From: a virus
IMG/VR virus record: IMGVR_UViG_3300013901_000011
Span: 1 to 28,922 of that record
Strand: one strand, 5' to 3'
Length of the DNA: 28,922 nucleotides
Shown here: piece after piece, positions 3,001 through 20,856 of the stretch
Numbering within the stretch: position 1 is the first letter of the stretch
Layout: every line of letters begins with the position of its first letter
The notes under the pieces: model-generated
The model's database searches: none
What the model was told of the DNA's origin: nothing
The model's input: the letters and a program-made list of their open reading frames with translations, nothing else
Made by a program: the position numbers and the translations under genes

Positions 3001-3986
3001 ATTTGAAGGGTCTTATTGATGGCAAAGCGGCAAGTAATCATGGACATAATATTATTGGTTTGCCAAGAGTTACTAAAGATGCTAATACGACTGCCCAGAA
3101 GAATACCTTTAAAGTTGAAGAATTTTCAAATGGAACTAATTATAATCTTCCTTCAAATCATTGGTATCATATTTATACTGGACAAGGTGATGATGCTAAT
3201 TATGCAACGCAATTAGCGCTTGGAATGACAACAACAAATATAGCCTATCGTGTTCGTAATGGAAGTGCTACTACTTGGGGCGGATGGAATACAATAATTC
3301 ACTCTGGAAATTATACATCTTATACGGTAACTAAAACCGGCTCAGGCGCCAGCGGCACTTGGGGAATTAATGTGTCAGGCTCTTCCACATCTTGTACTGG
3401 TAATGCTGCCACAGCGACTAAACTTCAAACAGCGCGCACTATTAGCTTAACAGGTTCGGTTACTGGCTCTGGAACCTTTGATGGTTCTGGTAATTTAAGT
3501 ATTACAACCTCAACTAATCACAGTCATAGTCAATATTTACCATTGGCTGGTGGAACGATGACAGGAACTATTAACTTTAATAATGATGTATTAGCTTGTA
3601 ATTTTAGAGCTAATAATGCTTCTTATCGTTCCGGTGTAATGCATCAATCAAGTGGAAATGAAGCATTAGTATTTGCAGCTGCTAATGCAGTTACAAGTTT
3701 TATATTTAAATGCGGAAAAGACCCTGTCGGGATGTCATCATCTACTTGGACTAGTATTACTCCTTCAATGCAAATAAAAAATCAAAGTGTATATATAAAT
3801 TCATTAATTGCAAATGGAACAACACCATCCTACAATTTATATGTAAATGGTTCTACACGTTGTAATGGAACTTTGGGGGTAGGAACTGGCTCAAGTGCGG
3901 AAATAGATTTCTTCCCTAATAGTTCTTCAACTATTGGCGCAAAGATTGTAGCCTATAGTGATAGAATAGAATTTGTATTTGTTTAA
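1..3986 (+). CDS. Large phage tail fibre / receptor-binding protein, 5'-partial (the reading frame is open from position 3 to the window edge; the TTG at 609 is only the first in-window start codon)
   Basis: The frame is uninterrupted from the window start to the TAA at 3984-3986. The product is Ser/Thr/Gly/Asn-rich and carries repeated modules typical of phage fibres. TDTNTWRGIQxNxTSDSTxDSLSAAQGKYLKxLIDGK occurs near nt 421-540 and again near nt 2920-3030. PLAGGTMTGxxNF occurs near nt 604-650 and nt 3541-3590. There are three copies of ...ARTI(T/S)LxGxxxGSxxFDGSxNxxxTTSxNH(T/S)H... . KTGSGASGTWGINxSG is shared with the downstream fibre genes. Confidence 0.8.
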   Translation, partial: VNGTTLTITKGSNATSTITLQDLNNKVTQTAVTAKDYTNWRTVLWGASNNATEGFTPTTVTDGTYTSNNLSFQPSTGTLKATIFKGSLNGNASTASSATKATYDGGGTKEIRTYVSDVAISGRTITVTRGNGNTFTLTTQDTNTWRGIQDNLTSDSTTDSLSAAQGKYLKSLIDGKSNNGHNHDDRYYTETEIDNKLKTYVPLAGGTMTGALNFQRTSTDRIQPNQQDIIINGIAESTAVGSAPGIGFHIGNKNWGSLKFLSDGSFRFYNGKADGYNSVYASNFYGALKGNADTATNATNANKASNDSSGNSIVGTYFSSVKVDANDSHKYNFLSPNGTTKGSITIYDEFQKRSTVTATTDWNTLIKTGIYKVQITTWGDAIKMHSPNSYNAQLYSCGILLVFESVSNDTEKRFTQIFIPHNAGINVSGSAYKRMHNGSDTTTGWQDWHPIARGLNWSELTGKPNYAGSGSAGGAATSANKLNTDAGSSTRPVYFSNGIPVICDTTIANNISGNANTSTLLRPYYTASTLSTGTSSWRNGVTEGKVVWGQLWKDTSISNDTGDLCLWINKSGTNTVLNMTLDGSVTAISGFNGDLIKTTPQLCASSESNEITIKINNNGIFKDSIGTANASLRNGLDFKWYNTNWQVGNIRGSSTDSLGFGFAFKADAKSTLALKARIDTNGVYHGGVDKLATPRTITLDGLGRGSVSFDGSKDVTIKDVGYGCSKYVTQNTTTAPYYRIAYYSNSNSYQDASMIFSIDSGYNGGGFGIIKVSFRSNNITTANQSSCEVKWLARQGFSANQIFVKGNAPAGGDQYADLYFKATGTYQAVTIRVLSAGGRGSMGRSWTFEEGTPRAATDIRTYSYTVEGSDSGIVYKASITDKLTTARTITLAGAVTGSVNFDGSANVTLTTSVNHTHNYAGSSSAGGSANSAVKLDTATAGSSTQPVYFTGGKPVACTYTLSKSVPADAKFTDTNTWRGIQNNVTSDSTSDSLSAAQGKYLKGLIDGKAASNHGHNIIGLPRVTKDANTTAQKNTFKVEEFSNGTNYNLPSNHWYHIYTGQGDDANYATQLALGMTTTNIAYRVRNGSATTWGGWNTIIHSGNYTSYTVTKTGSGASGTWGINVSGSSTSCTGNAATATKLQTARTISLTGSVTGSGTFDGSGNLSITTSTNHSHSQYLPLAGGTMTGTINFNNDVLACNFRANNASYRSGVMHQSSGNEALVFAAANAVTSFIFKCGKDPVGMSSSTWTSITPSMQIKNQSVYINSLIANGTTPSYNLYVNGSTRCNGTLGVGTGSSAEIDFFPNSSSTIGAKIVAYSDRIEFVFV

Positions 3987-3999
3987 TATAAAGATTAAT

Positions 4000-4036
4000 A
4001 GGTTAAGGTCAAATTGACTTTAACCTATTTTTTTTA
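4000..4036 (+). terminator. Rho-independent terminator after the large fibre gene
   Basis: The hairpin is aggttaaggtca-aat-tgactttaacct, a 12-bp stem with one G·U pair. It is followed directly by tattttttttat. Confidence 0.7.
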
Positions 4037-4123
4037 TACTATTTTTTTAGATATAAAGGAGATTAAGTATATGATTTGGGATAAAAAATTAAATGATATA
4101 AAGGCTAAATTAGGTGATTAATT

Positions 4124-4921
4124 ATGCTAGATGACTTTAGAAATAATCTATTTTTAGAGGCTTATAATGTTGCGAATTTTGATAAACCGCACTTACTTTT
4201 TACTAGTAATCAAACATTTAGTGCAACTAATTCTTATACAAGAATTAATTATACTAGTGGAGTACCACAAGCATATTATGAAAATGGAACTACTATAAAG
4301 ATAAGGCAAAATTATGGTAAGAGCTTTGGATATTGTGGTTTTGTGAAATTTTATTCTAATGATAGTATATTAGATATAGGAGCATATAATGAAGTAGGAG
4401 AGCAATTTACTTTTAATGTACAGGATTATATAAAAAATCGTGGTGAAGATTTATTTTTTTATGTAGATTTAGAATATAACTCTAACAATGCATATACATT
4501 AACAGTGAATATATATAATATGTTACAGAATAAATGGGTTTATATAGGTAGTAAAAATGTTACTTTGCCGAGTGGCTATAGTACTAGTGCAGTTTCAAAT
4601 TATTGCCCAGGCTTTATATTTACTACTTCTAATCCTGTATATGTGTATAATTTTAGAGGATATGGCAGTAGAATTGGTAGAGCTAATGCAGAAGATTTAG
4701 TTAGAGGAAAAGTATACTATATTAAATCTACCAATACATTAATGGCTCCTTGCTTTAATGAATATAAAGGTAATGATTATTATAATGGGGCGCATAATTA
4801 TACTAATACTTGCTTTTCTAGAAAAGGCGGTGTTTGTGTTAAAGGTAGTATTGAACAATCTGGTTTAAATAGAATTACTAAGACTGGAGATGTAAAATAT
4901 AATGATATTATTGAATATTAA
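4124..4921 (+). CDS. Hypothetical protein, probably a fibre-associated adhesin or assembly protein (Asn/Tyr-rich, predicted beta-rich)
   Basis: The ORF sits immediately downstream of the giant fibre and upstream of three fibre paralogs. It has an AGGTGA ribosome-binding site 6 nt upstream. I recognise no known motif. Confidence 0.5.
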   Translation: MLDDFRNNLFLEAYNVANFDKPHLLFTSNQTFSATNSYTRINYTSGVPQAYYENGTTIKIRQNYGKSFGYCGFVKFYSNDSILDIGAYNEVGEQFTFNVQDYIKNRGEDLFFYVDLEYNSNNAYTLTVNIYNMLQNKWVYIGSKNVTLPSGYSTSAVSNYCPGFIFTTSNPVYVYNFRGYGSRIGRANAEDLVRGKVYYIKSTNTLMAPCFNEYKGNDYYNGAHNYTNTCFSRKGGVCVKGSIEQSGLNRITKTGDVKYNDIIEY

Positions 4922-4932
4922 AAGGAGATAAA

Positions 4933-6030
4933 ATGGCAGTTTTAAAAGACACAACAATTAATGGAACTTTAACTTTAACAGGGAATGGTTATATAACTCT
5001 TCCTAAAAAATCTGTTACATGGCTGCAAGGCTTTCAGCAATCTCCAATTAAAGTAACAGACGCTACTGATAATAGTGGTTATCATCCTTGGATAATTCAA
5101 AAAAATACAAGCGCAAGTAAAATGTTTACCATGGGAATTTTTCAAAATTATTTTGTAATTGCCGGAAGTGCCACCTCTAGAACAACAAATGGTTATGATT
5201 ATGGTTGGTTCTTTAATGTTAGTAACGGTGAACTAAAATTAAATAATAATTATTTATATTTACATTCAAATAATTATACGAATTATGCACCATCTAAAAC
5301 GGGGTCTGGTGCTTCTGGTACTTGGGGAATTAACATCTCTGGTAACGCTGCAAGTTTATCTTCAACTTTGGCAATTAGTAAAGGTGGCACTGGAGCCACT
5401 AGTTTTACCGCTAATAGATTAATATATTATAATGGCTCTAAACTTGTATCGAGCAATGCTTATATAAGTGGTCAAGAAATAGGATTTAATGTAAGCAATA
5501 CTAGTACTGTCAGATTTTATACTAAAAACAATAATAATAACGCTGATTTACGAGTGTCTACAAATGCTGGTGTTTATCATACTAATGCTAGCGGTAGTAG
5601 TACTGCTAAATGGCTTATTTATATTAATACATCGGGCACAGTTACCGCAAACACTTCTGACAGAAGAAAGAAAAAATATATTGAAGATACCACTGAATAT
5701 GAAGCTATTTCAATATTAAAAAATATAAAAATTCGTAATTTTATTTACAAAGAAGATATAGGACATAATAATTTAATTCAAAATGGTATATTTGCCCAAG
5801 ATTTACGCGATGTTATGAAACAATACAATATAAGTAATCGTCCATGGTTACAATGGCATTATAATACTGACGATAATGTTTATTATGATATTAATGAATC
5901 AGAAACGGATAACATGACTTATGAAATTAATTATTCTAGTTTAATTCCATTGCTAATAAAAGGATGGCAAATTAATGAAAATAAAATTTCTCAACTAAAA
6001 GATAAAATTAAAGAATTAGAGGAAATATAA
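4933..6030 (+). CDS. Tail fibre protein with a C-terminal intramolecular chaperone (peptidase S74-like) domain
   Basis: The C-terminal part contains ...NTSDRRKKKYIED...NIKIRNFIYKEDIGHNNLIQNGIFAQDLRD... . This matches the S74 auto-processing chaperone pattern (S-D-x-R-x-K ... G-x-I-A-Q-D/E). The central KTGSGASGTWGINISGNA module is shared with the giant fibre. The N-terminus is paralogous to the next gene. Confidence 0.7.
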   Translation: MAVLKDTTINGTLTLTGNGYITLPKKSVTWLQGFQQSPIKVTDATDNSGYHPWIIQKNTSASKMFTMGIFQNYFVIAGSATSRTTNGYDYGWFFNVSNGELKLNNNYLYLHSNNYTNYAPSKTGSGASGTWGINISGNAASLSSTLAISKGGTGATSFTANRLIYYNGSKLVSSNAYISGQEIGFNVSNTSTVRFYTKNNNNNADLRVSTNAGVYHTNASGSSTAKWLIYINTSGTVTANTSDRRKKKYIEDTTEYEAISILKNIKIRNFIYKEDIGHNNLIQNGIFAQDLRDVMKQYNISNRPWLQWHYNTDDNVYYDINESETDNMTYEINYSSLIPLLIKGWQINENKISQLKDKIKELEEI

Positions 6031-6033
6031 ATT

Positions 6034-7344
6034 ATGTCTAGATTACGTTCCACTTTAATTAATGGAAATTTAGCTATTACTGAAACCGTTACAATTCCTC
6101 AAAGAAGTGCCACATGGTTAAATGGATTTAATAATTCGCCAATTAAAATAACTGATAGTACTAATTCATCTGATTATACTCCTTGGATTATACATCAAAA
6201 CACTAGTAGTTCTTTTGATTTTTATAGTCACGCTAGTTTTGGTTCTTATATTAATGATATTACTTTAGTAGGACTAAATAAAAAAGAAGCAGATGATGAA
6301 GTAGAGATTGAAATTCCTGATGAGGCAGAAGAACTTACCCCAGAATTTAGCAGTAAAAATAATTCTAAAATAACTACATATTCTAGCGATAATCCTTCAG
6401 AGATAGATACAAATTGCATGGTTAGATGGTGGTTTGATTCAAATAGTGGTGGTTTTGGCGTAGTTGGTAGCAAAAAAAGACTAAATAATAAAAATTGTTA
6501 TTATATTCATTCAAATAATTATACTAGTTATATGCCATCTAAAACAGGTAGTGGAGCTTCTGGAACTTGGGGTATTAATATTTCTGGTAATGCCGCAGGA
6601 TTATCTTCGGTTTTAACAGTTTCTAAAGGAGGAACCGGTAATAGTTCAATGCATTCTGGTAGTGTTTTAATTTCAGCAAATCCAGCTTCAAGAATAGGGA
6701 CTTATTCTTATTTTAAAGGGGCCAATTTAGAGATAGGTTACCAAACTTCTTCTGGAGAAACTAATATACAGGTAGCTAATTATTATAACTGTGTAAGATT
6801 AACTACAAATTCTAATGCTGGTATATATTGTTATGCGCCAGATTTTTCTGATGGACATAATAATCCACCATCAGGTACTGGTTATCATACTAGTATTACA
6901 AAATGGCTTATTTATATTAATACTTCTGGTACAGTTACAAAGAATACTTCAGACAAAAGAAAAAAATTTTATATAGAAGATATGCCAGAAGATGAGACTC
7001 GTGTATTATTAAATATTCCTATTCGTAATTTTATTTATAAAGAAGATATAGGCCATAATGACCTCGAACAAAATGGTATTTTTGCTCAAGATTTGCGTGA
7101 AGCAATGAAGGCTAATAACATAAGTAATCGCCCTTGGTTACAATGGGAATATAATGATAATGACAGAGATGATGTATATTATGATATTAATTCTCCAGAA
7201 AAAGATGATATGACTTATTCTGTATCGTATAATCATATGGTTCCAGCTCTTATCAAAGGTTGGCAAATGCAAAATAAAGAAATAGAAGAACTAGAGAAAA
7301 AACTCGCTATATTAAGAATTAAGAAAATTGAAAGTGGGGTGTAA
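6034..7344 (+). CDS. Tail fibre protein paralog with a C-terminal intramolecular chaperone (peptidase S74-like) domain
   Basis: The N-terminus (MSRLRSTLINGNLAITETVTIPQRSATWLNGFNNSPIKITD...) is paralogous to the ORF at 4933. The C-terminal part reads ...NTSDKRKKFYIEDM...IRNFIYKEDIGHNDLEQNGIFAQDLRE... . About 250 bp of the 3' DNA is clearly similar to the 3' end of the previous gene. Confidence 0.7.
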   Translation: MSRLRSTLINGNLAITETVTIPQRSATWLNGFNNSPIKITDSTNSSDYTPWIIHQNTSSSFDFYSHASFGSYINDITLVGLNKKEADDEVEIEIPDEAEELTPEFSSKNNSKITTYSSDNPSEIDTNCMVRWWFDSNSGGFGVVGSKKRLNNKNCYYIHSNNYTSYMPSKTGSGASGTWGINISGNAAGLSSVLTVSKGGTGNSSMHSGSVLISANPASRIGTYSYFKGANLEIGYQTSSGETNIQVANYYNCVRLTTNSNAGIYCYAPDFSDGHNNPPSGTGYHTSITKWLIYINTSGTVTKNTSDKRKKFYIEDMPEDETRVLLNIPIRNFIYKEDIGHNDLEQNGIFAQDLREAMKANNISNRPWLQWEYNDNDRDDVYYDINSPEKDDMTYSVSYNHMVPALIKGWQMQNKEIEELEKKLAILRIKKIESGV

Positions 7345-7350
7345 TTAACT

Positions 7351-8472
7351 ATGCCAGCGAATTTAATTTTTTATAAAACAGGGCAATTATCATGCATAGA
7401 TTCTTCTGTAAGTAGTAGCTCAGATGATGAAATTACTATAACTGAACCTTTCTGGACAATTACAGAAGATGGTTATTTTGATGGAGTAGCAAACAATGCT
7501 GAAACAGCAGATACTGCGTCAGTAGCTAATAAACTAGGAACTTCTACTCTTGGAGGAGCAACTAAGCCTATATATTTACTTTCGGGAAAAGCAACAGCTT
7601 GTAGTGATTTAATGCCTAAATCTGGAGGAACTTTTTCTGGAGCTGTAACATTTAATAGTACAGTTACATGTAATTCTACTTTAAAATGTGGAGAATATAT
7701 AAAAAGTAGTAAATCACAATATTCTAGTGTAACAAGTTATATTGATATGGCAGCTACTTCTACTCAATCTGGTGTTAGTGGTGCTATTTGTATTAGAAAC
7801 AGTAATGGAATACATATACAGGGTAATATTGTTGTAATTGAAGGTAACACAAGTACACCTGCTGCATATGAAACTGGATATCATACGACAGAGACTGGAA
7901 ATATGTGTGTTAGAGGAAAATTTCTATGTAAAAATGCTATAGGCTCATCTTATATGTATAATAATGATAAGGTAACTAGTGCAGCTAATGTATATGTTAC
8001 ATCTAATGGATGGTTGAGAAGAAGTACTTCTTCAGCAAGATATAAATTAGATATTAAAGAGATAGAAGAAGATGAAAAATATCCTTATAAAATTTTAAAT
8101 CTTAAACCAAAACAATGGTTTGATAAAACCGCCGTTGAAAAATATTCTCAATGGCTAGAAGGTAAAATTCCAAAAGATGAATTAGACGATTATTCAATAG
8201 ATTCTTATTATGGATTAATAGCCGAAGATGTAGAAAAAGTTGGTTTAAATAAATTTTGTTTTTATGGCTATGACAATGCTCGTAATTTAAAAACTGTAGA
8301 AGGTATTCAATATGATAGATTACCAATCTTATTTATACCAATATTAAATGATTGTATTGATTGCTTTAAAGCTATTTTACCAACAGTAAAAGAGAATATA
8401 AAGGATAAAAAGACTTTAGATAAAATTGCTTCACTTGAAGATAAATTTAATTCTATTGGACTTTCTTCCTAA
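7351..8472 (+). CDS. Third tail fibre-like protein with a divergent S74-like C-terminal chaperone domain
   Basis: The N-terminal part carries fibre motifs ANKLGTSTLGGATKPIYLLSGKATAC and PKSGGTFSGAVTFN, which echo the giant fibre. The C-terminal part reads ...RRSTSSARYKLDIKEI...YGLIAEDVEKVG, a relaxed version of the S-x-x-R-x-K / G-x-I-A-E-D pattern. Confidence 0.6.
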   Translation: MPANLIFYKTGQLSCIDSSVSSSSDDEITITEPFWTITEDGYFDGVANNAETADTASVANKLGTSTLGGATKPIYLLSGKATACSDLMPKSGGTFSGAVTFNSTVTCNSTLKCGEYIKSSKSQYSSVTSYIDMAATSTQSGVSGAICIRNSNGIHIQGNIVVIEGNTSTPAAYETGYHTTETGNMCVRGKFLCKNAIGSSYMYNNDKVTSAANVYVTSNGWLRRSTSSARYKLDIKEIEEDEKYPYKILNLKPKQWFDKTAVEKYSQWLEGKIPKDELDDYSIDSYYGLIAEDVEKVGLNKFCFYGYDNARNLKTVEGIQYDRLPILFIPILNDCIDCFKAILPTVKENIKDKKTLDKIASLEDKFNSIGLSS

Positions 8473-8510
8473 TTTATTGTAATATATAAATAAAAAAGGA
8501 GATATAAAGA

Positions 8511-8789
8511 GTGAGATTACGTGCGGGAGATGTAGTTAAACATTTTAAGCGAGAAACTCTTTCACAAGAAGAACAGGAAAACAGTACTAAATATTTGTAT
8601 ATAATTTATGATTTTGCGGAGCATACTGAAACTGGCGAAAAACTGGTTATTTATCACGGCTTGTATGCACCTTATAAATTATATGCTAGACCAATGGATA
8701 TGTTTTTTAGTGAAGTTGATAAAGAAAAATATCCAAATATAAAACAAAAATATCGTTTTGAACAATGGGAGGGAAAGCAAGATGAATAG
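8511..8789 (+). CDS. DUF1653-like small protein
   Basis: The start codon is GTG, preceded by aaaggag. The pattern G-DVVKHFK...Y.YII.DFAEHTETGEKLVIYHGLY...LYARPMDMFFSEV...RFEQ matches my recollection of the DUF1653 consensus (G.YKHFKG..Y.V...A.HSET.E..VVY..LY....W.RP..MF...V...PRFE). Confidence 0.55.
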   Translation: MRLRAGDVVKHFKRETLSQEEQENSTKYLYIIYDFAEHTETGEKLVIYHGLYAPYKLYARPMDMFFSEVDKEKYPNIKQKYRFEQWEGKQDE

Positions 8790-9177
8790 TCTTGAAATTT
8801 TAAAACAAATTTTTGACGTGTGTATTGTTCCTTTAATTGCTATTCTAACTTCTTATCTAGTTAGTTACATCCAAGTCCAAAAGGAGCAATTAAAGAAAAA
8901 GACAGATAATGATTTATTAAATAAGTACATTGATATGGCGGCTAGCACTATTGCGGATTGTGTTACAACAACCAATCAAACGTATGTAGATGCCTTAAAA
9001 AAGGAAGGTAAATTTGATGAAAAAGCGCAAAAGGTTGCCTTCCAGAAAACTTTAAATGCGGTTTTAGCTTTACTTACTAAAGAAGCTAAAGAATATTTAA
9101 CTGAAGCTTATGGAGACTTGAACTTATACTTAACTAATAAGATTGAGTCCACGGTTAATGAGAAAAAATCTAAATAA
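8782..9177 (+). CDS. Single-pass membrane protein with a charged coiled-coil tail. It may be BhlA/UviB-like and holin-like. The ORF track gives 8758, but the ATG at 8782 is preferred.
   Basis: There is a GGAGGG ribosome-binding site about 9 nt upstream of the ATG at 8782. An ATGAATAG overlap joins it to the stop of the upstream gene. One N-terminal transmembrane segment (ILKQIFDVCIVPLIAILTSYLVSYIQV) is followed by a Lys/Glu-rich helical region. Confidence 0.4.
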   Translation: MNSLEILKQIFDVCIVPLIAILTSYLVSYIQVQKEQLKKKTDNDLLNKYIDMAASTIADCVTTTNQTYVDALKKEGKFDEKAQKVAFQKTLNAVLALLTKEAKEYLTEAYGDLNLYLTNKIESTVNEKKSK

Positions 9178-9187
9178 TATATTACCA

Positions 9188-9229
9188 AAGGGGTAGGCTC
9201 TTGAATAAGGAGCCTACCCCTTATTTTAC
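9188..9229 (+). terminator. Rho-independent terminator
   Basis: A GC-rich 13-bp stem (aaggggtaggctc / gagcctacccctt) carries a 9-nt loop and is followed by attttacg. Confidence 0.6.
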
Positions 9230-9366
9230 GTTATACCAAAAAATTTTTAGAAAAATATTTTGGACTCTAGGAGAAATCTGGGCGAAGGAAGTAAAAGATT
9301 CCCAAAAAATTCGCATATACTTATGAAAGGAAGAGGGAAAAAGTTAATAGAAAGAAGGTAAGTAAA

Positions 9367-9780
9367 ATGTATCCTAATTACAATTATTACCCACCTCGAC
9401 AACAGCAACAAGTGCAGCCGCAGCAACAAATTCCACCCTTTTTAAAAGGCAGACCAGTATCTTCTTTAGAAGAAGTTAGAGCTATTCCAATAGACTTTGA
9501 TGGTTCTATTTTTTACTTCCCGGATATAGCAAATAGAAGAATATATACGAAACAAATTAATTTAGACGGGACAGCATTAATAAATATGTACGAATTTAAA
9601 CCTATTCCAGTAGCACAAGAGACTACTTCTAATACAAATGCTGATAGTTTTATAACTAGAGAGGAATTTGACGAAACAATGTCAAAGATTAAAGAAATGT
9701 TTGCGGCGATACCGGCTCAAAGCCCGCAACCGGCGCAAAAAGAAGTAACTAAGAAACCCGCAGAAATGCCAAAATTTTAA
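9367..9780 (+). CDS. Hypothetical protein with a Gln/Pro/Tyr-rich N-terminus (YPNYNYYPPRQQQQVQPQQQIPP)
   Basis: The ORF has an ribosome-binding site (gaaggtaag) upstream and a low-complexity Q-rich head followed by a globular-looking domain. Its architecture is reminiscent of Q-rich spore-coat proteins such as GerQ, which is my speculation. It follows a leader of about 140 nt after the terminator. Confidence 0.45.
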   Translation: MYPNYNYYPPRQQQQVQPQQQIPPFLKGRPVSSLEEVRAIPIDFDGSIFYFPDIANRRIYTKQINLDGTALINMYEFKPIPVAQETTSNTNADSFITREEFDETMSKIKEMFAAIPAQSPQPAQKEVTKKPAEMPKF

Positions 9781-9792
9781 GGAGGAAACCGC

Positions 9793-10038
9793 ATGAATAA
9801 CGTAAATCCTATGCAGCTAATTCAGATGATTAAAGGCGGTCAAAATCCGCAACAACTTATGATGAGTATACTTGAACAACAAATGCAAAATACTCCAATG
9901 GGAGCTAATCTATTGTCTTTAGCAAAGCAGAATAGAAGTGCAGATATTGAACAAATCGCCCGCAATATATGTAAACAAAGCGGAAAAGATTTTGATAAGG
10001 AATTTAATGCCTTCAAGCAAATGCTTGGGATTAAATAA
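9793..10038 (+). CDS. Hypothetical small Gln/Met-rich protein
   Basis: There is a GGAGGA ribosome-binding site 7 nt upstream. The ORF is tightly packed behind the previous gene. I recognise no known motif. Confidence 0.45.
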   Translation: MNNVNPMQLIQMIKGGQNPQQLMMSILEQQMQNTPMGANLLSLAKQNRSADIEQIARNICKQSGKDFDKEFNAFKQMLGIK

Positions 10039-10062
10039 TAAATTTATAAGGAGGACATTAAT

Positions 10063-10833
10063 ATGTTCAATAATGCAACTAGTGGCTATAGTTTAGCCGA
10101 CATCGCAGCTGCTACTGGTACTAACCGCAATGATAATGGTTGGGGCTTTGGTGGCGACGGGGGAGCCTGGTGGATTATTATACTCTTCCTCTTCTGCTTC
10201 GCAGGATGGGGCGGAAATGGAAATGGACTCTTCGGAGGCGGTTCCACAGGTTCAGGAATTACTGATGGTTATATTTTAACATCAGATTTCGCAAACATCG
10301 AAAGAAAAATCGATGGTGTAAACAGTGGTCTTTGTGATGGATTTTATGCCATGAACACAGGCATGCTGAATGGATTTGCTGGTATCAATAACAATATTAC
10401 GCAGCAAACAATCGCAGATATGCAAAATACCAACACTATTAATGCTGGTATTACTAACTTAGGTACTCAGTTACAGCAATGCTGCTGCCAAGACAGATAT
10501 GAATCCGCACAGAACTTTGCAACTCTAAACTATAATTTAGCAGACCAAGAATGTTCTACTCGTAGAGCTGTATCTGATGCAACTAGAGACCTTATGGAAA
10601 ACCAAAACGCTAATACTAGAAGCGTATTAAGCGCACTGCAAGATATGCAAACACAGGCACTGCATGATAAAATTGCTGAACTTACAACTGCTAATTCTGA
10701 CCTTAGATTCCAAGCTAGTCAAGCAGCTCAGAACAGCTATCTTATCAATGCTCTTAATCCTTCACCTGTACCTGCATACACAGTTCCTAATCCTTATTCA
10801 AGCTATAGAAACTGTGGATGTTCAACTTTATGA
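10063..10833 (+). CDS. Gly-rich membrane protein with Cys clusters (CCCQ..., C-x-x-x-R, NCGCSTL) and a coiled-coil segment
   Basis: There is an AGGAGGA ribosome-binding site. The protein has one strongly hydrophobic segment (AWWIIILFLFCFAGWGG) flanked by GGxGG runs, then a Gln/Asn/Thr-rich helical region with Cys pairs. The DNA here is locally richer in GC than its surroundings. Confidence 0.5.
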   Translation: MFNNATSGYSLADIAAATGTNRNDNGWGFGGDGGAWWIIILFLFCFAGWGGNGNGLFGGGSTGSGITDGYILTSDFANIERKIDGVNSGLCDGFYAMNTGMLNGFAGINNNITQQTIADMQNTNTINAGITNLGTQLQQCCCQDRYESAQNFATLNYNLADQECSTRRAVSDATRDLMENQNANTRSVLSALQDMQTQALHDKIAELTTANSDLRFQASQAAQNSYLINALNPSPVPAYTVPNPYSSYRNCGCSTL

Positions 10834-10849
10834 TTAAATAGTTTGACTT

Positions 10850-10879
10850 CTAGGGAGCCCGCCAGCTCCCTAGTTTGTT
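10850..10879 (+). terminator. Rho-independent terminator
   Basis: The inverted repeat ctagggagc - ccgcca - gctccctag is followed by tttgtt. Confidence 0.6.
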
Positions 10880-10903
10880 AAACTCCTGAAAGGAGACTAA
10901 TTT

Positions 10904-11326
10904 ATGGAACTAACTAGTAACGTAGTACAAACCGTAAATGCAAATGAAAATGTTGTATTTATTACAACTAGAATCCCTGGTAATTGTTCTATTATTCATA
11001 CCGAGGGAAGTGGAAATATTAAAATGAGAGGCTTATCTAACAATCAATGCCGCTCAAGATTTAAAGTAACTTTTACTGGTAATATTGCTGTTCCTACTGG
11101 TGGAACCGCAGGTGCTATTTCTCTAGCTATTACAATAGATGGAGAAACAGTACGTACTACCAAGATGATTGTAACCCCAGCCGCAGTAGAAGAATATTTT
11201 AATGTAGCTTCATGTGTATATATTGATGTTCCTACTGGATGCTGCTCAACAACTGGTGTAACTAATACTTCAACACAAACGATTAACGTTCAAAACGCTA
11301 ATCTCATTGTAGAAAGGGTGGCGTAA
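10904..11326 (+). CDS. BclA C-terminal-domain-like (TNF/C1q-like jelly-roll) protein that lacks a collagen-like region
   Basis: There is an AGGAGA ribosome-binding site. The alternating beta-strand pattern and the C-terminus ...TINVQNANLIVERVA recall the Bacillus anthracis BclA C-terminal domain ending (...SASIIIEKVA). Internal Cys pairs are present. Its length of about 140 aa fits a single C1q-like domain. Confidence 0.4.
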   Translation: MELTSNVVQTVNANENVVFITTRIPGNCSIIHTEGSGNIKMRGLSNNQCRSRFKVTFTGNIAVPTGGTAGAISLAITIDGETVRTTKMIVTPAAVEEYFNVASCVYIDVPTGCCSTTGVTNTSTQTINVQNANLIVERVA

Positions 11327-11329
11327 TAT

Positions 11330-11875
11330 ATGCATAGACTATATGATATGAAAAACTGTTTAATTAGCGCCGCTCAATCTCAAATGGGTAATCTTCAAGA
11401 TTGTGATGCTGAAGAATTAGGTGAAGTAGTTGATATGATAAAAGACCTCGAAGAGGCTATTTATTATTGTACAATTACAAAAGCTATGAATGAGAAATCT
11501 GAAAATAATAATGACACTTCTCAGTATCGTATGTATTACAGAGAAAGAGGAGGTCAAGACTATGGTAATAATTCCTCTTCATATAATAACTATCCTAGAA
11601 CTGATAAGCATATTGATAAAAGTAATGAACCTTATCGTGAAAGAGAATTTCCTATAGAGATGCGCGATGCGCGTGAGGGTCGCAGTCCAATGCGTCGCCG
11701 CATGTATATGGAATCTAAAGAACTCCATAAGGATAAAATAACCGCAATGAAAGAACTTGAAGAATATATGCAAGAATTAAGTTCTGACATCTGTGAAATG
11801 ATTGAAGATGCTTCTCCAGAAGAGAAACAATTACTTCAAAAGAAAATTATTGCTCTATCAAATAAAATACAATGA
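11330..11875 (+). CDS. Hypothetical highly charged, disorder-prone protein
   Basis: The ORF is separated from the previous stop by only 3 nt. It is Glu/Arg/Lys/Asn-rich with no recognisable motif. Its end overlaps the next start (ATGA). Confidence 0.4.
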   Translation: MHRLYDMKNCLISAAQSQMGNLQDCDAEELGEVVDMIKDLEEAIYYCTITKAMNEKSENNNDTSQYRMYYRERGGQDYGNNSSSYNNYPRTDKHIDKSNEPYREREFPIEMRDAREGRSPMRRRMYMESKELHKDKITAMKELEEYMQELSSDICEMIEDASPEEKQLLQKKIIALSNKIQ

Positions 11876-12189
11876 TTAAAATAAACGGAGAGACTTGGAG
11901 AATATTTCTTGTCTCTCCTAATCATCCAATTCTATATTCTAATGGTATATATACACTTGGAGCTTGTGACAATGCCACACATTCAATCTATATAAATGAA
12001 AACCTTAATTCTCGTAAGATGAAAAAAGTATTATGCCATGAGATAACACATGCGGCAATGTTTAGCTATGACGTAGAATTAACGTTAGAGCAAGAAGAAC
12101 TTTTAGCAGATTTACTTGCTACTTATGGGCAAGAAATCATCGACATTACAAATGAAATCTTTACAAAATTAAAGAGGAATAGTGATTAG
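11872..12189 (+). CDS. HEXXH zinc metallopeptidase domain protein, ImmA/IrrE (M78/DUF955)-like, orphan
   Basis: It contains ...GACDNATHSIYINENLNSRKMKKVLCHEITHAAMFSY... . The HEITH motif is preceded by a G-x-C-D ... I-Y-I-N block typical of ImmA/IrrE-type peptidases. No helix-turn-helix partner lies adjacent. Confidence 0.5.
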   Translation: MIKINGETWRIFLVSPNHPILYSNGIYTLGACDNATHSIYINENLNSRKMKKVLCHEITHAAMFSYDVELTLEQEELLADLLATYGQEIIDITNEIFTKLKRNSD

Positions 12190-12222
12190 ATAGGTTAATA
12201 AATATTCCTCTTTTTTTATTTG
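12171..12222 (+). terminator. Probable terminator between the converging + and - gene blocks
   Basis: An 11-bp stem aaagaggaata / tattcctcttt carries a 21-nt loop and is followed by ttttttatttg. The stop codons of the two convergent genes lie only 26 nt apart. Confidence 0.4.
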
Positions 12223-12647
12223 TCTGAAATGTGTTTAGCTTTTTGTTCAACAAGAGCAAATAAGCTATCACCATTATGATTACCCTTCAAACCATTATAA
12301 GCGTCATGGTCTTCAATACACTGTTGGTATTCTTCTAAGGTTATATCATGGTCTTCAGCGAGTAATTCTTGACATTCGGCAATAAATTCTTTTTTTTGCA
12401 TCGAAAGAATTCCTTTTCTTAGGGCATCTAGTTGCTTTTGGAGTTGATGGTCTCCATCTCTTGATTCCTTCTCTATCTCATCATATCGAGCAAACATATC
12501 CTTTTTAAGTTTATCATAAAACTTAGCACGTTCAGTATTTTGTTCCTCTTCTTTTAATTTCATATATCTTTTAATAAAATATCCACTGCCAGCAACTATT
12601 AAGCCAAATCCGAATTCGACCCAATATTTAATTATAAAGTCTAACAT
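12216..12647 (-). CDS. Single-pass membrane protein with a coiled-coil tail (hypothetical)
   Basis: An N-terminal transmembrane segment (YWVEFGFGLIVAGSGYFI) is followed by a charged helical region. The start codon is preceded by taggagggacacc. Confidence 0.5.
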   Translation of the reverse strand: MLDFIIKYWVEFGFGLIVAGSGYFIKRYMKLKEEEQNTERAKFYDKLKKDMFARYDEIEKESRDGDHQLQKQLDALRKGILSMQKKEFIAECQELLAEDHDITLEEYQQCIEDHDAYNGLKGNHNGDSLFALVEQKAKHISDK

Positions 12648-12708
12648 GGTGTCCCTCCTACCTTAATTCTCATATAGAATTAAAAAATAGGAAAGTCAAA
12701 TTTATTTA

Positions 12709-13197
12709 TTAAGACCAATCAAACATTTCTGTCTCTTCTTTTACAAAATAATGAGTTCCAATACATATTGCATCAGCTTCATCTTCTGTACATTTTAATC
12801 CATAAGTAGATTGAACATAAGCTTGCGCGTTCTTCTTCTGCTCCGCCCTAACTCTACCTTTAATCTGCAAAGTAGACCGCCATTGTACCGCCAAGACTGA
12901 GCTATTAGGCATCTTAGTTTCTGTAAAATATTCACATAAAACACCAATAACTTCCGCAAGTTTTTTAAATGTTAATACATTGTTTCCCGCGCCATTTTTT
13001 AACTGTATATCTTCAAAGATAACTTCATCTACTTCATACTTTTCAATTAATTCCTTAACCTTATTCTTAATATTCATTAATCTTTCACCAAAATCTTTAT
13101 CGGTAAAAGTAAAGTGTCCATAATCAAGAAGTTTGCCGTCTTCAAAAACGGCAAACCCTGATATTCGACTACTCTGGTCTAAAGCCAATAATTTCAT
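12709..13197 (-). CDS. ruvC: RuvC-like Holliday junction resolvase (Firmicute-phage type)
   Basis: The N-terminus KLLALDQSSRISGFAVFEDGKL matches the resolvase start motif. Acidic catalytic candidates lie at LALD, FEDIQ and TEDEADAICIG. The size is 162 aa. Confidence 0.7.
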   Translation of the reverse strand: MKLLALDQSSRISGFAVFEDGKLLDYGHFTFTDKDFGERLMNIKNKVKELIEKYEVDEVIFEDIQLKNGAGNNVLTFKKLAEVIGVLCEYFTETKMPNSSVLAVQWRSTLQIKGRVRAEQKKNAQAYVQSTYGLKCTEDEADAICIGTHYFVKEETEMFDWS

Positions 13198-13775
13198 TAA
13201 ATAGCGGACATAAGAGCTGGGGATACTGCAATATTATCAGCATCAGTAGAACCAAATCCGCCTGCTCTTGTCTTATTGAACTGAGTATCATCTGAGGTTT
13301 TATAATATTTCTTGATAATACCTTGCCCAATAATATCTCCTTTTTTAATTTGAATAGGATAAGGACTTAAATTAATTAGCTGAAAGAAAATTTCTCCTTC
13401 ATTAGCTTCGCAGTCATAATAATCTGCATCAATAATACCAACACCATTAGCTAAAATAAGCCAATATTTAAGCGGAGTAGATGAACGAACTGAAAGTTCA
13501 AGGTATTTATCCAATGGTAGTTTACATTTAACTCCAGTAGATACAAGAACTGGTCTTGCTCCTGGTTTATCAGTCATTTTCTTCATCGCATCTAATGTAA
13601 AAATTGAATTTTCCGAATAACCATTTTTACACATTTCTGTTACTGATTGATAATATGGCGGTATTAGCACATCTTCTGCGGCAGCCATATCATAACCTGC
13701 GGCGTTCGCTGTTGCGCGCACAGGCATTTTAATATCTTCATCTTTAAATCTGGAAACTTTTTCAAACTTAATCAT
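13197..13775 (-). CDS. dut: dUTP diphosphatase (dUTPase)
   Basis: The dUTPase motifs are present: AAGYDMAA (motif I), GIIDADYY (motif III) and RAGGFGSTD (motif V). Confidence 0.75.
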   Translation of the reverse strand: MIKFEKVSRFKDEDIKMPVRATANAAGYDMAAAEDVLIPPYYQSVTEMCKNGYSENSIFTLDAMKKMTDKPGARPVLVSTGVKCKLPLDKYLELSVRSSTPLKYWLILANGVGIIDADYYDCEANEGEIFFQLINLSPYPIQIKKGDIIGQGIIKKYYKTSDDTQFNKTRAGGFGSTDADNIAVSPALMSAI

Positions 13776-17691: not shown

Positions 17692-18279
17692 TTATTCCTG
17701 CCCTAACTGCATCGCATAGATTTCATTAATCAATATCATAATATGTTTAATATTCTCTTCTAATTCTATTAAATTATCATTATAAAGAGTATCCTCGAAA
17801 GAAAATTCTTGTTCTAAACCATCAAAATCTATATCATCGGCTTTAAAACGTCTAATAATTTCATATACATTAGGGTTTTCTTCACGCTCAAGTTGTCTAA
17901 TCATTCGTTGTTTATCTGAAGCTACAACATAGAATGGAAACAATATAATATCTTGGTTATGTGAAAGTGCCTCAATCCCCGCAGGATTAAACACCCCAAT
18001 ATTTATCTTGCTTTTGGATAAGGAATCATATGAGGTTCCATAAAACCAATTATTAAAGCAAGTGGCTTCCAACATTTCACCTTTAAGCACTTTTTCCGCA
18101 AACTGCTCAGGATTAAGGAAATGATAATTTACTCCATCTTGCTCTCCGCTTCTAGGTTCACGTGTAGTACATGAAACTATCTCGTGGATAAAGGGGGCGT
18201 CTTTTGTAACGCCCTTTAATATTGTATCTTTTCCACTTCCAGCTTTACCAACTAATGCTATAACAATATATTTATTCAT
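17692..18279 (-). CDS. Guanylate-kinase-like nucleoside monophosphate kinase
   Basis: It has a P-loop (VGKAGSGKDT). The NMP-binding block CTTREPRSGEQDGVNYHFL...FAEKVLKGEMLE...YGTS parallels the guanylate kinase TTRxPRxGExDGxDYxF...YGT motif. Confidence 0.65.
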   Translation of the reverse strand: MNKYIVIALVGKAGSGKDTILKGVTKDAPFIHEIVSCTTREPRSGEQDGVNYHFLNPEQFAEKVLKGEMLEATCFNNWFYGTSYDSLSKSKINIGVFNPAGIEALSHNQDIILFPFYVVASDKQRMIRQLEREENPNVYEIIRRFKADDIDFDGLEQEFSFEDTLYNDNLIELEENIKHIMILINEIYAMQLGQE

Positions 18280-19622
18280 CTTCTTCTAAGCCTTGATACC
18301 TTTCTGTTTTTAATAACAAATCTCCATTATCTTCTAACTTATCAATTTTATATAATTGATGTCCACCACTAGAAGCATATTTTTTAGCCACAAATTCATC
18401 TCCGCTTCTTATACCTTGTACTACAATCATATTTCCGCGGTTAAACCAACTGCGTTCCACCACGTGTTTAGCTCCATCCGCGCCACGCTCAGATATCTGC
18501 TTATCAAAGAGAGAGAAATATTCTTTTCTAAACTTAACGCTAACAACCCCATCAGTTGTTAACAAAGATACAGTTCCTTTATCCTTATTTTTTGCAATAC
18601 AAGTTCCGCAGATTTTGAATAACTTAAACATCTTAATCTCTTTATTGCCTTTGTAGAATACTTTATCTACTATTGGCTGCTCTGGAATATCTTTGAAATT
18701 GGTTAAGCCATATTTGCCCATATTAACATGCGCCAATTCATGTTCATGATAATAGAAACATAATGCTTCCATTTCCCAAGATGAATAATTTCCTTCTGCA
18801 TAATTTTTCCAATCTGCATAAAAAATTCTTTCATTCAAATTTTGTAAGATTTTTTCTTTATCTCCCGCAATCCAATTTCTAAAAACATCCATTTCTTTGT
18901 GATAAACTCGTTCCCAAGTTTTTACATTTAATTTATTTCCATCCTCAATAAGCCCTTCTTTTTCAATCTCTGCCAAGAAATCCATTGAACGCTCATCAAG
19001 AATAAAATGAGTTGTGGTTTTAGATGGTTTACACATAGCTTTTAAGTATCTATTAAATTCATAGATTCTTCTAGCTAAAATCTTTTCATCTGTATCTTCT
19101 GGCAATAAACCATAACGAATTAAACCTGGAAGATTAGACAATGTAAGATTTTTCTTCTTATCACAAGTTTCCCATATGAACCAAGCCATAGCTAATTTTC
19201 TATCCATAAAAGTATCAAATGCTCCACCTTTAATCAAAGAAATCATAGCTTGTTTATTTGGTTTAACTTTATAATAATAATCTTTTATTGATATATATGG
19301 ACGATTTTGAATAGTTCTTTCAATTACATCATCACCAACATTCAACATAGCTTTCAATCCAAAAAGAATCTTATTATGTTTAATATCTGGCTTAAATCCA
19401 AAATCAGAAGTATTAATATCAACTAAAGAAATCTTAGTATCTGTCTGCATAATTTTACCAATAGCATTTGCAATCTTGGTATAATCTGTGCTTCCATTTG
19501 CCTCAAGCTCTCCACTGTCTGTAATGAGACAAGCTGTATTCCATAAAATAGTGGGATAATGATATGCCAGATTCATCTCTTGCAAAGCTACTAATGAATA
19601 AGCTAATGTATGAGACTGATTG
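18272..19622 (-). CDS. dnaE: DNA polymerase III alpha subunit (DnaE-type), exon 3 (C-terminal part). The exon's 5' end is inferred.
   Basis: The frame upstream of the TTG at 19585 continues as ...NQSHTLAYSLVALQEMNLAYHYP..., which matches the DnaE FNKSHAxAY...AYLKxHYP region. It ends with an OB-fold-like C-terminus. Confidence 0.65.
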
Positions 19623-20856
19623 CTTTTTTAAATTAAAAAACTGACTATTTTTTACACACTTCGTTCTAGGAGCCACCTAGAGTGCGCATACTATTTCGGT
19701 TTTCATAGGCTTCGTTTCCTAAAACCTAGCCACGTATCAATAGTGACCCTACTCCCAGTCTCACCCGGGATAGTCGATACAACATTTTTAAAAGAGAGTA
19801 TTCCAAATTTTTTTATTTTCTTCTTTATTTTTATTTAATGGATAAATAAATCTATCATCTTTTCTATTACGTCCAGTATTTAATGCAGTTATAGTACTTT
19901 TAGCTTTAGAATATTTTTCACCGATTTGAGCATGAGTTAAACTTGAAAAAATTAAATCATATTTAGCATCATGGCTCCAAGCGCCATCTGAACAGCTCTT
20001 TTTACATAAAGGATATTTTAATGTTTCATCAAACCATTTTTCTCCTTTATTAATCATACTAATATAACCCGCAGAAATTCCATACTTTGCAGAAATTATT
20101 TTATATTCAATACCTTCAGCAATATCTGATATAATATTTTCTTTTGTTTCTTTAGAAAACTTAGTATGTAAAGTTGCTAATGGATAAGTTAAACTTTCAT
20201 CTTTAAAATTTAATCCTAAATTTATATTAGAAAGAAAACTGTCTGTTAATTGTGGAAATATCTTTTTAATTTCAAAATATTCATAACCATCTATTAACAT
20301 TTGATGTATTTTTTTTACATCATCTAAAGTAAAAATATGAGATAGCTTTACTTGTTGTTCAAGAGTTAATTTTGGTTTTGCACATCCATCTCCGCCTTTA
20401 GTTATATTATAACCATTTTGCGTAACTAAACTTTTATAATAGGAAATAAAATATATTTCTCTTTCATTTAAATAATCTCTTCCAAAGCTGTCATCTATTT
20501 CTTCTATTATCTCAAAATCAAAATTTTCATACCCATATTTTCTTATAGCACAATGAAATGGTAAATTATATCCACTAGCTTTCTTATTAAAAGATTCTGA
20601 TTTATGACCTCTACATCTTTTAGCTATATCATTTGTTTGTCCTATATATATCTTACCATTTATCTTATTGGTAAATTTATAAATATATAACATTGTCTCC
20701 CTCCTTTCTTTGGAAATATATTTAGTCTCTTTTAAATTTGTCACGAGATTTTACCCTCGTTAGCCATATACTACTTTTTCTGGCTAAGAATTAAGTTTTT
20801 AATTGTATATGACCCCGCTGATAAGCGGTTAAGTATGTTGGGTCCAATCTTACTCA
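19623..20856 (-). mobile_element. Group I self-splicing intron 2 in dnaE (boundaries inferred, ±10 nt), with an embedded GIY-YIG homing endonuclease gene
   Basis: Splicing at ...GGGTT | ...AAAAAG | CAATCAG... restores the GYGF-NQSH coding. The 5' exon ends in U and the intron ends in G. The non-coding flanks are 112 nt and 165 nt. The 3' flank contains a gtatcgactatcc motif that intron 1 shares. Confidence 0.55.
19788..20744 (-). CDS. GIY-YIG homing endonuclease (intron-encoded, I-TevI-like with NUMOD/helix-turn-helix C-terminal modules)
   Basis: The N-terminal YIYKFTNKINGKIYIGQT...NEREIYFISYY...GYNITKGG is a GIY-YIG domain. The C-terminal LTHAQIGEKYSKAKSTITALNTGR is a helix-turn-helix-like module. 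It has its own ribosome-binding site (aaggaggga). Confidence 0.8.
   Translation of the reverse strand: MTNLKETKYISKERRETMLYIYKFTNKINGKIYIGQTNDIAKRCRGHKSESFNKKASGYNLPFHCAIRKYGYENFDFEIIEEIDDSFGRDYLNEREIYFISYYKSLVTQNGYNITKGGDGCAKPKLTLEQQVKLSHIFTLDDVKKIHQMLIDGYEYFEIKKIFPQLTDSFLSNINLGLNFKDESLTYPLATLHTKFSKETKENIISDIAEGIEYKIISAKYGISAGYISMINKGEKWFDETLKYPLCKKSCSDGAWSHDAKYDLIFSSLTHAQIGEKYSKAKSTITALNTGRNRKDDRFIYPLNKNKEENKKIWNTLF

Follow-up and report, generated by a model that had tools for sequence, protein, structure and literature searches.

In the exosporium, ExsF is a stand-alone trimer with the tumour necrosis factor (TNF) fold that takes up three Pro-rich leader peptides, from BclA or F-Anchor, in the clefts at its subunit interfaces; residues 1-19 of BclA are cleaved off before docking on ExsF (PMC12357932). 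TNF-fold knobs are also common at the tips of phage fibres. Other described counterparts are the phage morons and lysogenic-conversion cassettes, such as lambda lom, bor and stf-tfa and those at the right ends of Firmicutes prophages. The system analysed here is a block of six genes, A to F, in a virus sequence of 28,922 nucleotides (IMG/VR record IMGVR_UViG_3300013901_000011, positions 1-28,922; "the window" means this whole stretch). Judged by gene order and homology, A-F is one conserved accessory operon, common to thousands of gut and rumen Firmicutes (Bacillota) phages, and D is confidently predicted to have the TNF/C1q/BclA-C jelly-roll fold. The preferred explanation, given a probability of about one in three, is that C and D would form a membrane-associated stalk and knob, with A, B and E as helpers and F as a protease, in a cell-envelope role. 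An earlier note on the window, made from the sequence alone, had suggested that the block may be a set of spore-surface proteins or, alternatively, of virion decoration proteins.

Content, spread and mobility of the module

The six open reading frames (ORFs) are all on the + strand, closely packed between two terminators:

9188-9222, + strand: terminator, 15-bp stem with 8 GC pairs and a T-rich tail (-28.7 kcal/mol, z -7.0)
9308-9331, + strand: promoter-like element AATTCGCATATACTTATGAAAGGA, consensus AAATTTTnATATAaTnaTGAAAGG, 36 nt upstream of the A start
9367-9780, + strand: gene A, 137 aa, PHROG 21718 type
9793-10038, + strand: gene B, 81 aa, PHROG 22984 type
10063-10833, + strand: gene C, 256 aa, PHROG 16490
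10850-10873, + strand: GC-rich hairpin and T-run between C and D, 9-bp stem (-19.9 kcal/mol, z -5.2)
10904-11326, + strand: gene D, 140 aa, PHROG 20016
11330-11875, + strand: gene E, 181 aa, PHROG 28802 type
11872-12189, + strand: gene F, 105 aa, PHROG 1233, its start overlapping the E stop (ATGA)
12171-12213, both strands: terminator shared with a convergent gene, 11-bp stem and U-run (+ strand -16.1 kcal/mol, z -3.1)

Successive genes are 3-24 nt apart or overlap, with the C-D spacer as the exception. The protein lengths were reproduced by independent gene calls on identical public contigs, and the exact window protein A is present on 20 public contigs. The six ORFs, three terminators and quoted sequence features of the earlier note were every one confirmed. 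The terminator at 9188-9222 closes a unit of tail-fibre, DUF1653 and LL-H-type holin genes and forms the upstream boundary of the cassette; relatives have a hairpin and T-run at the same place. The downstream boundary, 12171-12213, overlaps the stop codon of F, and on the - strand it reaches -14.2 kcal/mol (z -4.0) and can thus serve the convergent gene 12216-12647 (-). A scan of 8000-13500 found 10 terminator-like sites against 2.3 expected. The hairpin at 10850-10873, followed by the Shine-Dalgarno region of D (CTGAAAGGAG), is a predicted intra-operon terminator or attenuator.

The order A-B-C-D-E was unbroken in all 68 loci compared (63 were identified by searching GTDB genomes with the D alignment; the window itself and two each of annotated phages and metagenome contigs make up the rest; individual loci are given by L numbers). 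C was present in 63 of these, with a contig end cutting four of the five exceptions. E was found directly after D in 61, B directly upstream of C in 53, and A, always first, in 52. An HExxH version of F was found in 26 loci.

The families are large and carry no functional annotation. There are more than 7,281 homologous sequence clusters of C at 90% identity and more than 7,000 of D, with no Pfam domain or name among them, and all these homologues come from gut and rumen samples. The D family has 829 members (clusters at 50% identity) at E <=0.001 in 1.84 billion representatives, and A has 3,446 homologues, without a Pfam domain. The six PHROGs listed above are all classed as "unknown function"; 16490, 20016 and 1233 were matched directly by the window proteins, and 21718, 22984 and 28802 by their counterparts in relatives. 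Literature searches did not find a description of the module, which appears to be a very large mobile accessory operon of Bacillota phages, not previously described. If the block were a chance run of unrelated small phage ORFs with no joint function, six unknown-function PHROGs would be expected, but the strict order in 68 loci on unrelated phage backbones, the obligate C-D pair and the joint gain and loss of five genes make such a run highly improbable.

Near-identical phages differ by the whole module. L085 and L086 have flanks that are 89-94% identical, and 3.4 kb with A-E in L085 corresponds to ca. 235 bp in L086. Pairwise DNA comparison identified further plus/minus pairs (L085 with L095 and L100, L103 with L102, L124 with L119), with flanks 85-95% identical and a 3.4-kb insertion or deletion. 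The minor capsid protein of L033, used as an unbiased search seed, identified 80 viral contigs, all of a single lineage; where a contig extended far enough downstream to tell, the module was clearly more often missing than present. From this clean presence/absence between near-identical phages it follows that the module is not needed for these virions; by the same genome comparisons, any virion decoration by the module is non-essential.

The position of the module also varies. It is found after the holin in the window's clade, after the endolysin and holin in Butyrivibrio phage Ceridwen, after replication genes and the integrase gene in Dulem virus 39, and, in L033 and the L021 type, within the head genes, flanked by those for minor capsid protein 2 (PF06152) and scaffold (PF06810). 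It adjoins the integrase in L040, L041, L045, L053, L057 and L062 and is convergent with the integrase in several prophage-like contigs. A tmRNA gene, a likely prophage attachment site, is directly after the module in L034 (4644-5014). The earlier note had asked whether homologous cassettes occur in prophages by tail modules: prophage cassettes were found, but their position is not tied to structural modules. All close relatives of the window's holin have the module downstream. A tie of the module to the LL-H-type holin was rejected, as distant holin homologues occur in other phages without the module.

The gap upstream of A is 144 nt long and contains the 24-nt element at 9308-9331. This element scores 16.3 with a position weight matrix (PWM) built with the window left out, and is the sole hit of at least 12 in the 28.9-kb window, with 0.54 expected in shuffles. 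One copy is found at the same position in ca. 14 related loci, including L012, which was outside the PWM training. The element is a putative promoter, to judge from its sequence; a general promoter of the phage was ruled out, since there is one occurrence per locus. The earlier note had described a long leader of about 140 nt. The length of the gap was right, but because this conserved, window-unique element is inside it, the gap is better read as a terminator plus a promoter-like element.

The module resembles phage morons in having its own terminators, a promoter-like element and presence/absence polymorphism, as well as in its sites (the late-gene end or beside the integrase) and its transfer between unrelated phage backbones. 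It differs from them in the number of genes inherited together (five to seven, against one or two), in lacking a secretion signal or a recognisable toxin, defence or enzyme domain except F, and in being kept by large and apparently lytic phages as well. The module is dispensable and has its own transcription signals, with promoter activity predicted. The suggestion that the block is a moron holds up on its flanking terminators, promoter-like element, polymorphism and shifting position, while base composition adds little to it. The GC content of 9367-10833 is indeed raised (0.384 vs an average of 0.326 over the window, which ranks it within the highest 3.5% of stretches of that size), but it is weak as a sign of acquisition: third-position GC of A-C is 0.25-0.30, within the range of the other window genes (0.10-0.33), and C is 11% Gly and 11% Ala, so the excess is largely a matter of amino-acid composition.

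These sites raise the alternative of a conversion or exclusion factor carried by the prophage. It would be expressed from the integrated phage or at an early stage of infection, with C as a membrane effector, and would change the envelope so as to block superinfection or alter host fitness. In favour of it, temperate relatives carry the module at the classical conversion site, between the late-gene end and attP/integrase (in L034 beside the tmRNA gene), with a terminator and -10-like sequences ahead of it. The membrane-type character of C and the dispensability of the module also fit. However, a set of five to seven genes without secretion signals and without homology to known Sie, Abi or defence proteins (PADLOC) is kept too by ca. 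180-kb phages and by Ceridwen, for which lysogeny is not known. This alternative, which overlaps the preferred stalk-and-knob explanation and differs mainly in timing and purpose, is considered unlikely.

The TNF-fold protein D and its partners

The AlphaFold2 (AF2) model of D, built from a 36-sequence alignment, is all-beta, with pLDDT 87.4 and pTM 0.80. In a Foldseek comparison with the PDB its first matches were the F-BclA C-terminal domain (CTD; 9h38) and ExsFA (7r1m, 7r5i, 9h3d), followed by TNF ligands and phage fibre knobs. The earlier note had likened D to the BclA CTD and had proposed checking it for a TNF/C1q fold; modelling and Foldseek bear this out, with BclA-type domains and ExsFA among the best matches. 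On the model, D is a distant stand-alone member of the TNF/C1q/BclA-C fold class, with a format closest to ExsFA. Its beta domain starts directly at the N-terminus, and its best 150 homologous representatives are 79-196 aa long and all unfused. The BFVD matches are similar stand-alone proteins of ca. 135-142 aa from uncultured gut phages.

At the sequence level the relationship is remote. D has the same fold class as the BclA CTD and F-BclA CTD (1wck, 3twi, 9h38) but only 16-19% identity to them, and its similarity to ExsFA/BxpB (7r1m, 9h3d) is undetectable. The Pfam families BclA_C (PF18573), C1q and TNF gave no match to the window D at E <=1, and among ten divergent D relatives only L155 hit BclA_C, with 21.7 bits against a cut-off of 38 (E 2e-4). 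No BclA chain in the PDB was found by HMMER with D, the D profile or a divergent relative. The similarity that the earlier note had seen between the D terminus, NANLIVERVA, and a BclA tail given as IIIEKVA could not be verified in this way.

D also differs from BclA in that it has no collagen-like GXY stalk and no exosporium leader (TIGR03720 had no NCBIfam match to any of the six proteins), and in being phage-encoded, including by phages of non-sporeformers. ExsFA/BxpB is likewise a stand-alone TNF fold, although the partner of D is an alpha-helical, membrane-type protein (C) and not a collagen-like fibre. As regards an ExsFA-type anchor, D has the stand-alone TNF fold, and C has a conserved Pro-rich tail (46 of 57 sequences) on which D might dock. 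D is 40-70% identical across very different phages, which suits a partner-binding hub. The TNF knobs of phage fibres and spikes (cyanophage A-1(L)/A4, the Sf6 needle, PRD1 P5 and the C-terminal domain of TM4 gp23) are alike in fold, but they are host-variable C-terminal domains of long fibre proteins, whereas D is a separate 140-aa protein strongly conserved across hosts.

Protein C is near-invariant in its N-terminal helix, YSLADIAAATG, and in the motif ITDGYILTSDFANIERK. A Trp-flanked apolar run (family median 16 residues; residues 36-49 in the window) lies between Gly-rich linkers, and the window protein contains GFGGDGG, LFGGG, the apolar segment WWIIILFLFCFAGW, CCC and a C-terminal CGC. 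CCC is present in 55 of the 57 family sequences, a C-terminal CxC in 51, and the tail P-x-P-A-Y-x-V-P-N-P-Y in 46. The monomer model (AF2) is poor, with a single helix predicted at 93-231, a rod of ca. 140 residues that contains the CCC. A double-glycine leader at the N-terminus was rejected for too much variation directly behind the conserved G, and a lipobox for lack of conservation of the anchor Cys.

Sequence and profile searches of the PDB with D, C, A, E and f7 (a seventh gene of temperate relatives, described below) gave no significant match. Below threshold, the C profile matched influenza HA2 residues 69-139 (E 0.003, many HA2 entries), and the A profile matched "VP5" chains 6qgl and 6j7v (E 0.008), which we take to be the spike protein of haloarchaeal pleomorphic viruses (HRPV). 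Both are stalk regions of viral membrane-fusion proteins, and both matches are probably coiled-coil composition noise. C is like spanins (Rz) and class I fusion proteins such as HA2 in its glycine-flanked apolar segment, long helical rod and conserved cysteines, but this is a likeness of layout, with insignificant E-values; C has no lipoprotein partner or second anchor, and most hosts have no outer membrane.

The remaining proteins are small and mostly helical or of low complexity. A has a Tyr/Gln/Pro-rich low-complexity head of variable length, a conserved core of ca. 60 aa and a Pro/Gln/Lys tail; residues 2-21 are YPNYNYYPPRQQQQVQPQQQ, and there is also a helix with ITREEFDE in the window (VTREEF in the family). 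B is helical and Met/Gln-rich, with 9.4% Met and 15.1% Gln in a family of 51 relatives, compared to backgrounds of 2.7% and 3.8%. Met-rich helical surfaces, as in the SRP54 M domain, SGTA and Get3, bind apolar segments, and for this reason B is proposed to shield the anchor of C, for whose apolar segment it may be a holdase. E had been described as an acidic disordered protein. It is acidic (pI 5.0), and its variable middle is a low-complexity stretch rich in Tyr, Arg, Gly, Ser and Asp, but its helical N- and C-terminal parts are conserved in relatives.

F scores 25.2 bits against the ImmA/IrrE family (Pfam PF06114, MEROPS M78), above the cut-off of 22. It has HEITH at residues 56-60, followed by EQEELLAD, and HE(I/L)xH and the downstream acidic motif EQEExxAD are kept in 20 aligned relatives. 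By these motifs F is a predicted minimal HEXXH zinc peptidase of the ImmA/IrrE (M78) type. It differs from ImmA/IrrE in having only the catalytic core (105 aa) and in being the last gene of a module of structural-looking proteins; there is no HTH/XRE-type repressor gene in or beside the cassette in the window. The description of F as an orphan HEXXH peptidase was right about the motif, which clears the Pfam cut-off, but as the regular last gene of the module F is no orphan. In scans of the six proteins against Pfam, NCBIfam, PHROGs and PADLOC, only M78 for F, the neighbouring holin and unknown-function PHROGs were found, and a pooled Pfam scan of 62 relatives gave only the one sub-threshold BclA_C hit and no coat family.

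In the spore-surface idea, which goes back to the earlier note, phage proteins made in the mother cell would reach the coat or exosporium of the host spore from the cytoplasm and serve lysogenic conversion or carriage of the phage on spores. The exosporium proteins F-BclA CTD, BclA and ExsFA are the best structural matches of D, and in the full weighing this fold match is the only positive evidence for the idea. Also in keeping with it are the L155 hit to BclA_C, the lack of signal peptides, which fits mother-cell assembly, and the CC/CCC motifs and Gln/Tyr/Pro- or Gly-rich compositions, which recall ENA and coat proteins (PMC12357932). Most of the named hosts are Clostridia. Butyrivibrio and Selenomonas, however, are described as non-spore-forming, and both groups are represented among the carriers: Ceridwen, a lytic phage of Butyrivibrio; a prophage (L056) in the isolate Butyrivibrio sp. 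INlla21; and six independent contigs assigned to Selenomonadales/Selenomonadaceae (L057, L058, L059, L061, L064 and L067). Ceridwen was isolated on Butyrivibrio fibrisolvens, with only lytic growth observed (PMC7372960).

The module is also present in ca. 180-kb phages, the annotated contexts are all phage, with no sporulation loci, and the upstream element, compared by eye, does not resemble the sigma-E/sigma-K consensus. A, B, C and E match no GerQ, CotE or CotY/ExsY-type coat or exosporium family in Pfam or NCBIfam (E <=1), no coat, exosporium or leader family is matched by any of the six proteins, and D lacks the collagen stalk. The supposed coat-protein nature of D's neighbours thus found no support, and with carriers among phages of non-sporeformers a spore-surface role of the module is unlikely; deposition on host spores, as proposed, retains only a very slim chance.

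Envelope or virion

We infer the following scheme, in which the docking of D on C, the oligomeric state of C, the chaperone role of B, the substrate of F, and the location and biological role of the assembly are all conjectural. Inside the infected cell, C would be held soluble by the Met/Gln-rich B. C would next form an oligomeric coiled-coil stalk attached to the cytoplasmic membrane, either in it or on it, and D would trimerise and dock on the Pro-rich tail of C, as ExsF docks the leader peptide of BclA or F-Anchor. A and E, which are low-complexity, helical and without enzyme motifs, would be assembly partners or matrix components, and F would trim one component of the assembly. The operon would be transcribed from its own promoter-like element, and in the window phage the hairpin behind C would lower read-through into D-E-F. 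What results would be a "nap-like" stalk and knob at the envelope of an infected cell or a lysogen.

This scheme is proposed because the stand-alone TNF fold, the Pro-rich tail, the cysteine motifs (for cross-linking or metal) and the small protease match the ingredients of the ExsF system. An envelope role, in phage exclusion or in envelope behaviour at lysis, is more likely than one on spores. The cell membrane is preferred over the virion because of the C anchor, the dispensability of the module, its varied locations and its separate transcription signals.

A credible but less probable alternative is an optional virion appendage, in which C as a coiled-coil shaft and D as a TNF-fold knob would make up a dispensable fibre of the head or tail, or a whisker. 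A, B and E would then be assembly chaperones and F a maturation protease; D might bind glycans as TNF-fold lectins do. Comparable optional structures are the phi29 head fibres, the lambda side tail fibres and the lactococcal neck-passage structures. In the PDB and BFVD, D matches the cyanophage A-1(L)/A4 tail fibres, the Sf6 needle knob, PRD1 P5 and TM4 gp23, and also the lactococcal 1358 receptor-binding protein, collagen/C1q phage proteins and TNF-like lectins (e.g. BC2L-C, 9ib6). The soluble module proteins have no signal peptide, as for virion parts, and the cassette follows tail-fibre genes on the same strand in the window and lies between minor capsid protein and scaffold in the L033/L085 lineage. 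Presence/absence among close relatives is typical of non-essential fibres, and the module is kept by Ceridwen, known only as lytic.

Several observations fit an appendage less well. D is far more conserved across monoderm and diderm hosts than receptor-binding knobs usually are, C has a membrane-type apolar anchor, and the module is not bound to structural modules in its position. Terminators of its own flank the operon, its promoter-like element is unseen before other window genes, and A-F match no structural PHROG or Pfam family.

A number of points also weigh against the envelope-bound stalk and knob. C has an apolar segment that is rather short to be a membrane helix, no topology follows from the charge distribution, and the helical rod is of low confidence (pLDDT 50). 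The module is inside the head-gene cluster in one lineage and after the tail fibres, on the same strand, in the window, which fits a virion appendage equally. No known anti-phage defence or exclusion family was hit in PADLOC at better than E 0.03. Several other phages of the large-phage clade lack the C-D hairpin, so that the proposed dosage effect is not universal, and F is missing from about half of the loci, with an unrelated small protein in its place in six.

Regulatory RNA, neighbouring genes and implications

The C-D spacer of many temperate relatives is 110-150 nt long and contains two hairpins that show compensatory changes and are linked by AUG(U/G), which is invariant, then a third, terminator-like hairpin, and then the ribosome-binding site of D. 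This arrangement is found in L008, L017, L026, L027, L030, L033, L034, L037, L043-L046, L050, L053, L055 and L062 (e.g. L017 7871-8000). Pairing holds in 85.5% of cells, compared to 39-53% with the partner slid, and the covariation score is 0.59 vs 0.05-0.19 slid, a value reached by 0 of 500 shuffles. No Rfam family matched at gathering thresholds. On this covariation the element is a candidate attenuator or riboregulator. The window spacer (10834-10903) retains only the last hairpin, which is also present in the closest relatives, L003 and L004, and corresponds to the third hairpin of the longer element in temperate relatives. Other Rfam hits were a type II hammerhead ribozyme (L027 5310-5378), a skipping-rope RNA (L043 6071-6148) and int-alpA RNAs (L017 110-179 and 1548-1613).

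Temperate relatives have a seventh gene, f7, upstream of A (ca. 127 aa, PHROG 3754; L001 3905-4282, L021 3124-3507 and 26 other loci), whose slot in the window's clade is taken by the LL-H-type holin. Its invariant residues are V-x-D-C-x-x-R-A ... H ... D-x-W-D-S. A papain/C39/CHAP-like Cys-His enzyme, considered from this residue pattern, had no support in Pfam or the PDB and is a lead only. Small genes (66-90 aa) of the sigma-70-region-4/LuxR(GerE) helix-turn-helix (HTH) type are just upstream of the module in many temperate relatives, usually with a terminator after them, and may be dedicated module regulators:

L053 5751-5963: HTH gene upstream of the module
L062 5788-6045: HTH gene upstream of the module
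L043 1427-1627: HTH gene upstream of the module
L046 4353-4577: HTH gene upstream of the module
L085 8547-8762: HTH gene upstream of the module
L021 4601-4873: HTH gene upstream of the module

Only that of L046 clears the Pfam threshold (GerE/LuxR, 28.6 bits), and the window has no upstream HTH gene of this type.

Foreign genes are found inside the module with its order undisturbed, in the C-D spacer, after D or in the D-E gap. The C-D spacer of L021 (6819-7934) has a 371-aa ORF that by eye is C5 cytosine methyltransferase-like, and foreign ORFs are also in the C-D spacers of L014, L018, L022, L028 and L049. Ceridwen has an HNH endonuclease gene after D (L001 6349-7143 is among the insertion sites), and the L085 lineage has a 196-aa ORF between D and E (L085 11572-12162).

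Twelve related loci (L007, L009, L010, L012, L016, L020, L029, L031, L035 and L042, plus L006 and L013) have in-frame TAG, never TAA and almost never TGA, in the module and neighbouring genes. TAG is densest in the Gln-rich A and B (1.7 and 3.5 per 100 codons), often at Gln positions of the window proteins. This codon pattern indicates that the twelve are TAG-to-Gln recoded phages, with the standard code in the window. As a clock of late expression, TAG density was uninformative, since TAG is also found in nucleotide-metabolism genes.

Upstream of the block, the + strand of the window has tail-fibre genes (609-8472), a DUF1653 gene and the LL-H-type holin (8758-9177; PHROG 13712, E 9e-35). If read from its first possible start, TTG 8758, the holin ORF shares 32 nt (8758-8789) with the end of the DUF1653 gene; public gene calls start the holin at ATG 8782 (131 aa). 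No endolysin gene was recognisable across the 28.9-kb window in Pfam and PHROG scans. Downstream, the - strand encodes RuvC, dUTPase, NrdG/NrdD, guanylate kinase, a split DNA polymerase III alpha, an SF1 helicase and a RecJ-like protein. The polymerase gene (18272-24312, -) is broken into three ORFs:

22945-24312, - strand: polymerase piece 1, PHP domain and start of the NTPase domain
20850-22052, - strand: polymerase piece 2, rest of the NTPase domain and finger
18272-19585, - strand: polymerase piece 3, HHH_6

GIY-YIG homing-endonuclease-like ORFs of very low GC content (0.24-0.25) separate the pieces (22069-22710 and 19788-20744), an arrangement that suggests mobile introns or a genuinely split polymerase.

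In its fullest form, the proposal is of an undescribed stalk-and-knob at the surface or envelope: an ExsF/BclA-like trimer on a cysteine-cross-linked membrane coiled coil, with a Met-rich chaperone, a protease and covarying RNA control in temperate phages, a phage counterpart of the exosporium "nap" outside sporulation. That whole is a long shot. If the function is ordinary, e.g. an optional fibre, the main gain is annotation. Knowing the role of the module would provide annotations for five to seven genes at once across a large proportion of Firmicutes phages. Handles for finding that role include the cultured carrier Ceridwen, with proteins QHJ73766-QHJ73772, isolate lysogens such as Lachnospiraceae bacterium JLR.KK009, Lachnospira intestinalis CLA-AA-H89B and Butyrivibrio sp. 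INlla21, the natural plus/minus pairs of near-identical phages, the hypothesis that the C tail docks in the D cleft, and the candidate regulatory RNA. A role would also show a function of a stand-alone BclA/ExsF-like TNF-fold protein outside spores, and, if the proposal is true, the stalk-and-knob operon may be an evolutionary source or sink of the exosporium "nap" machinery.

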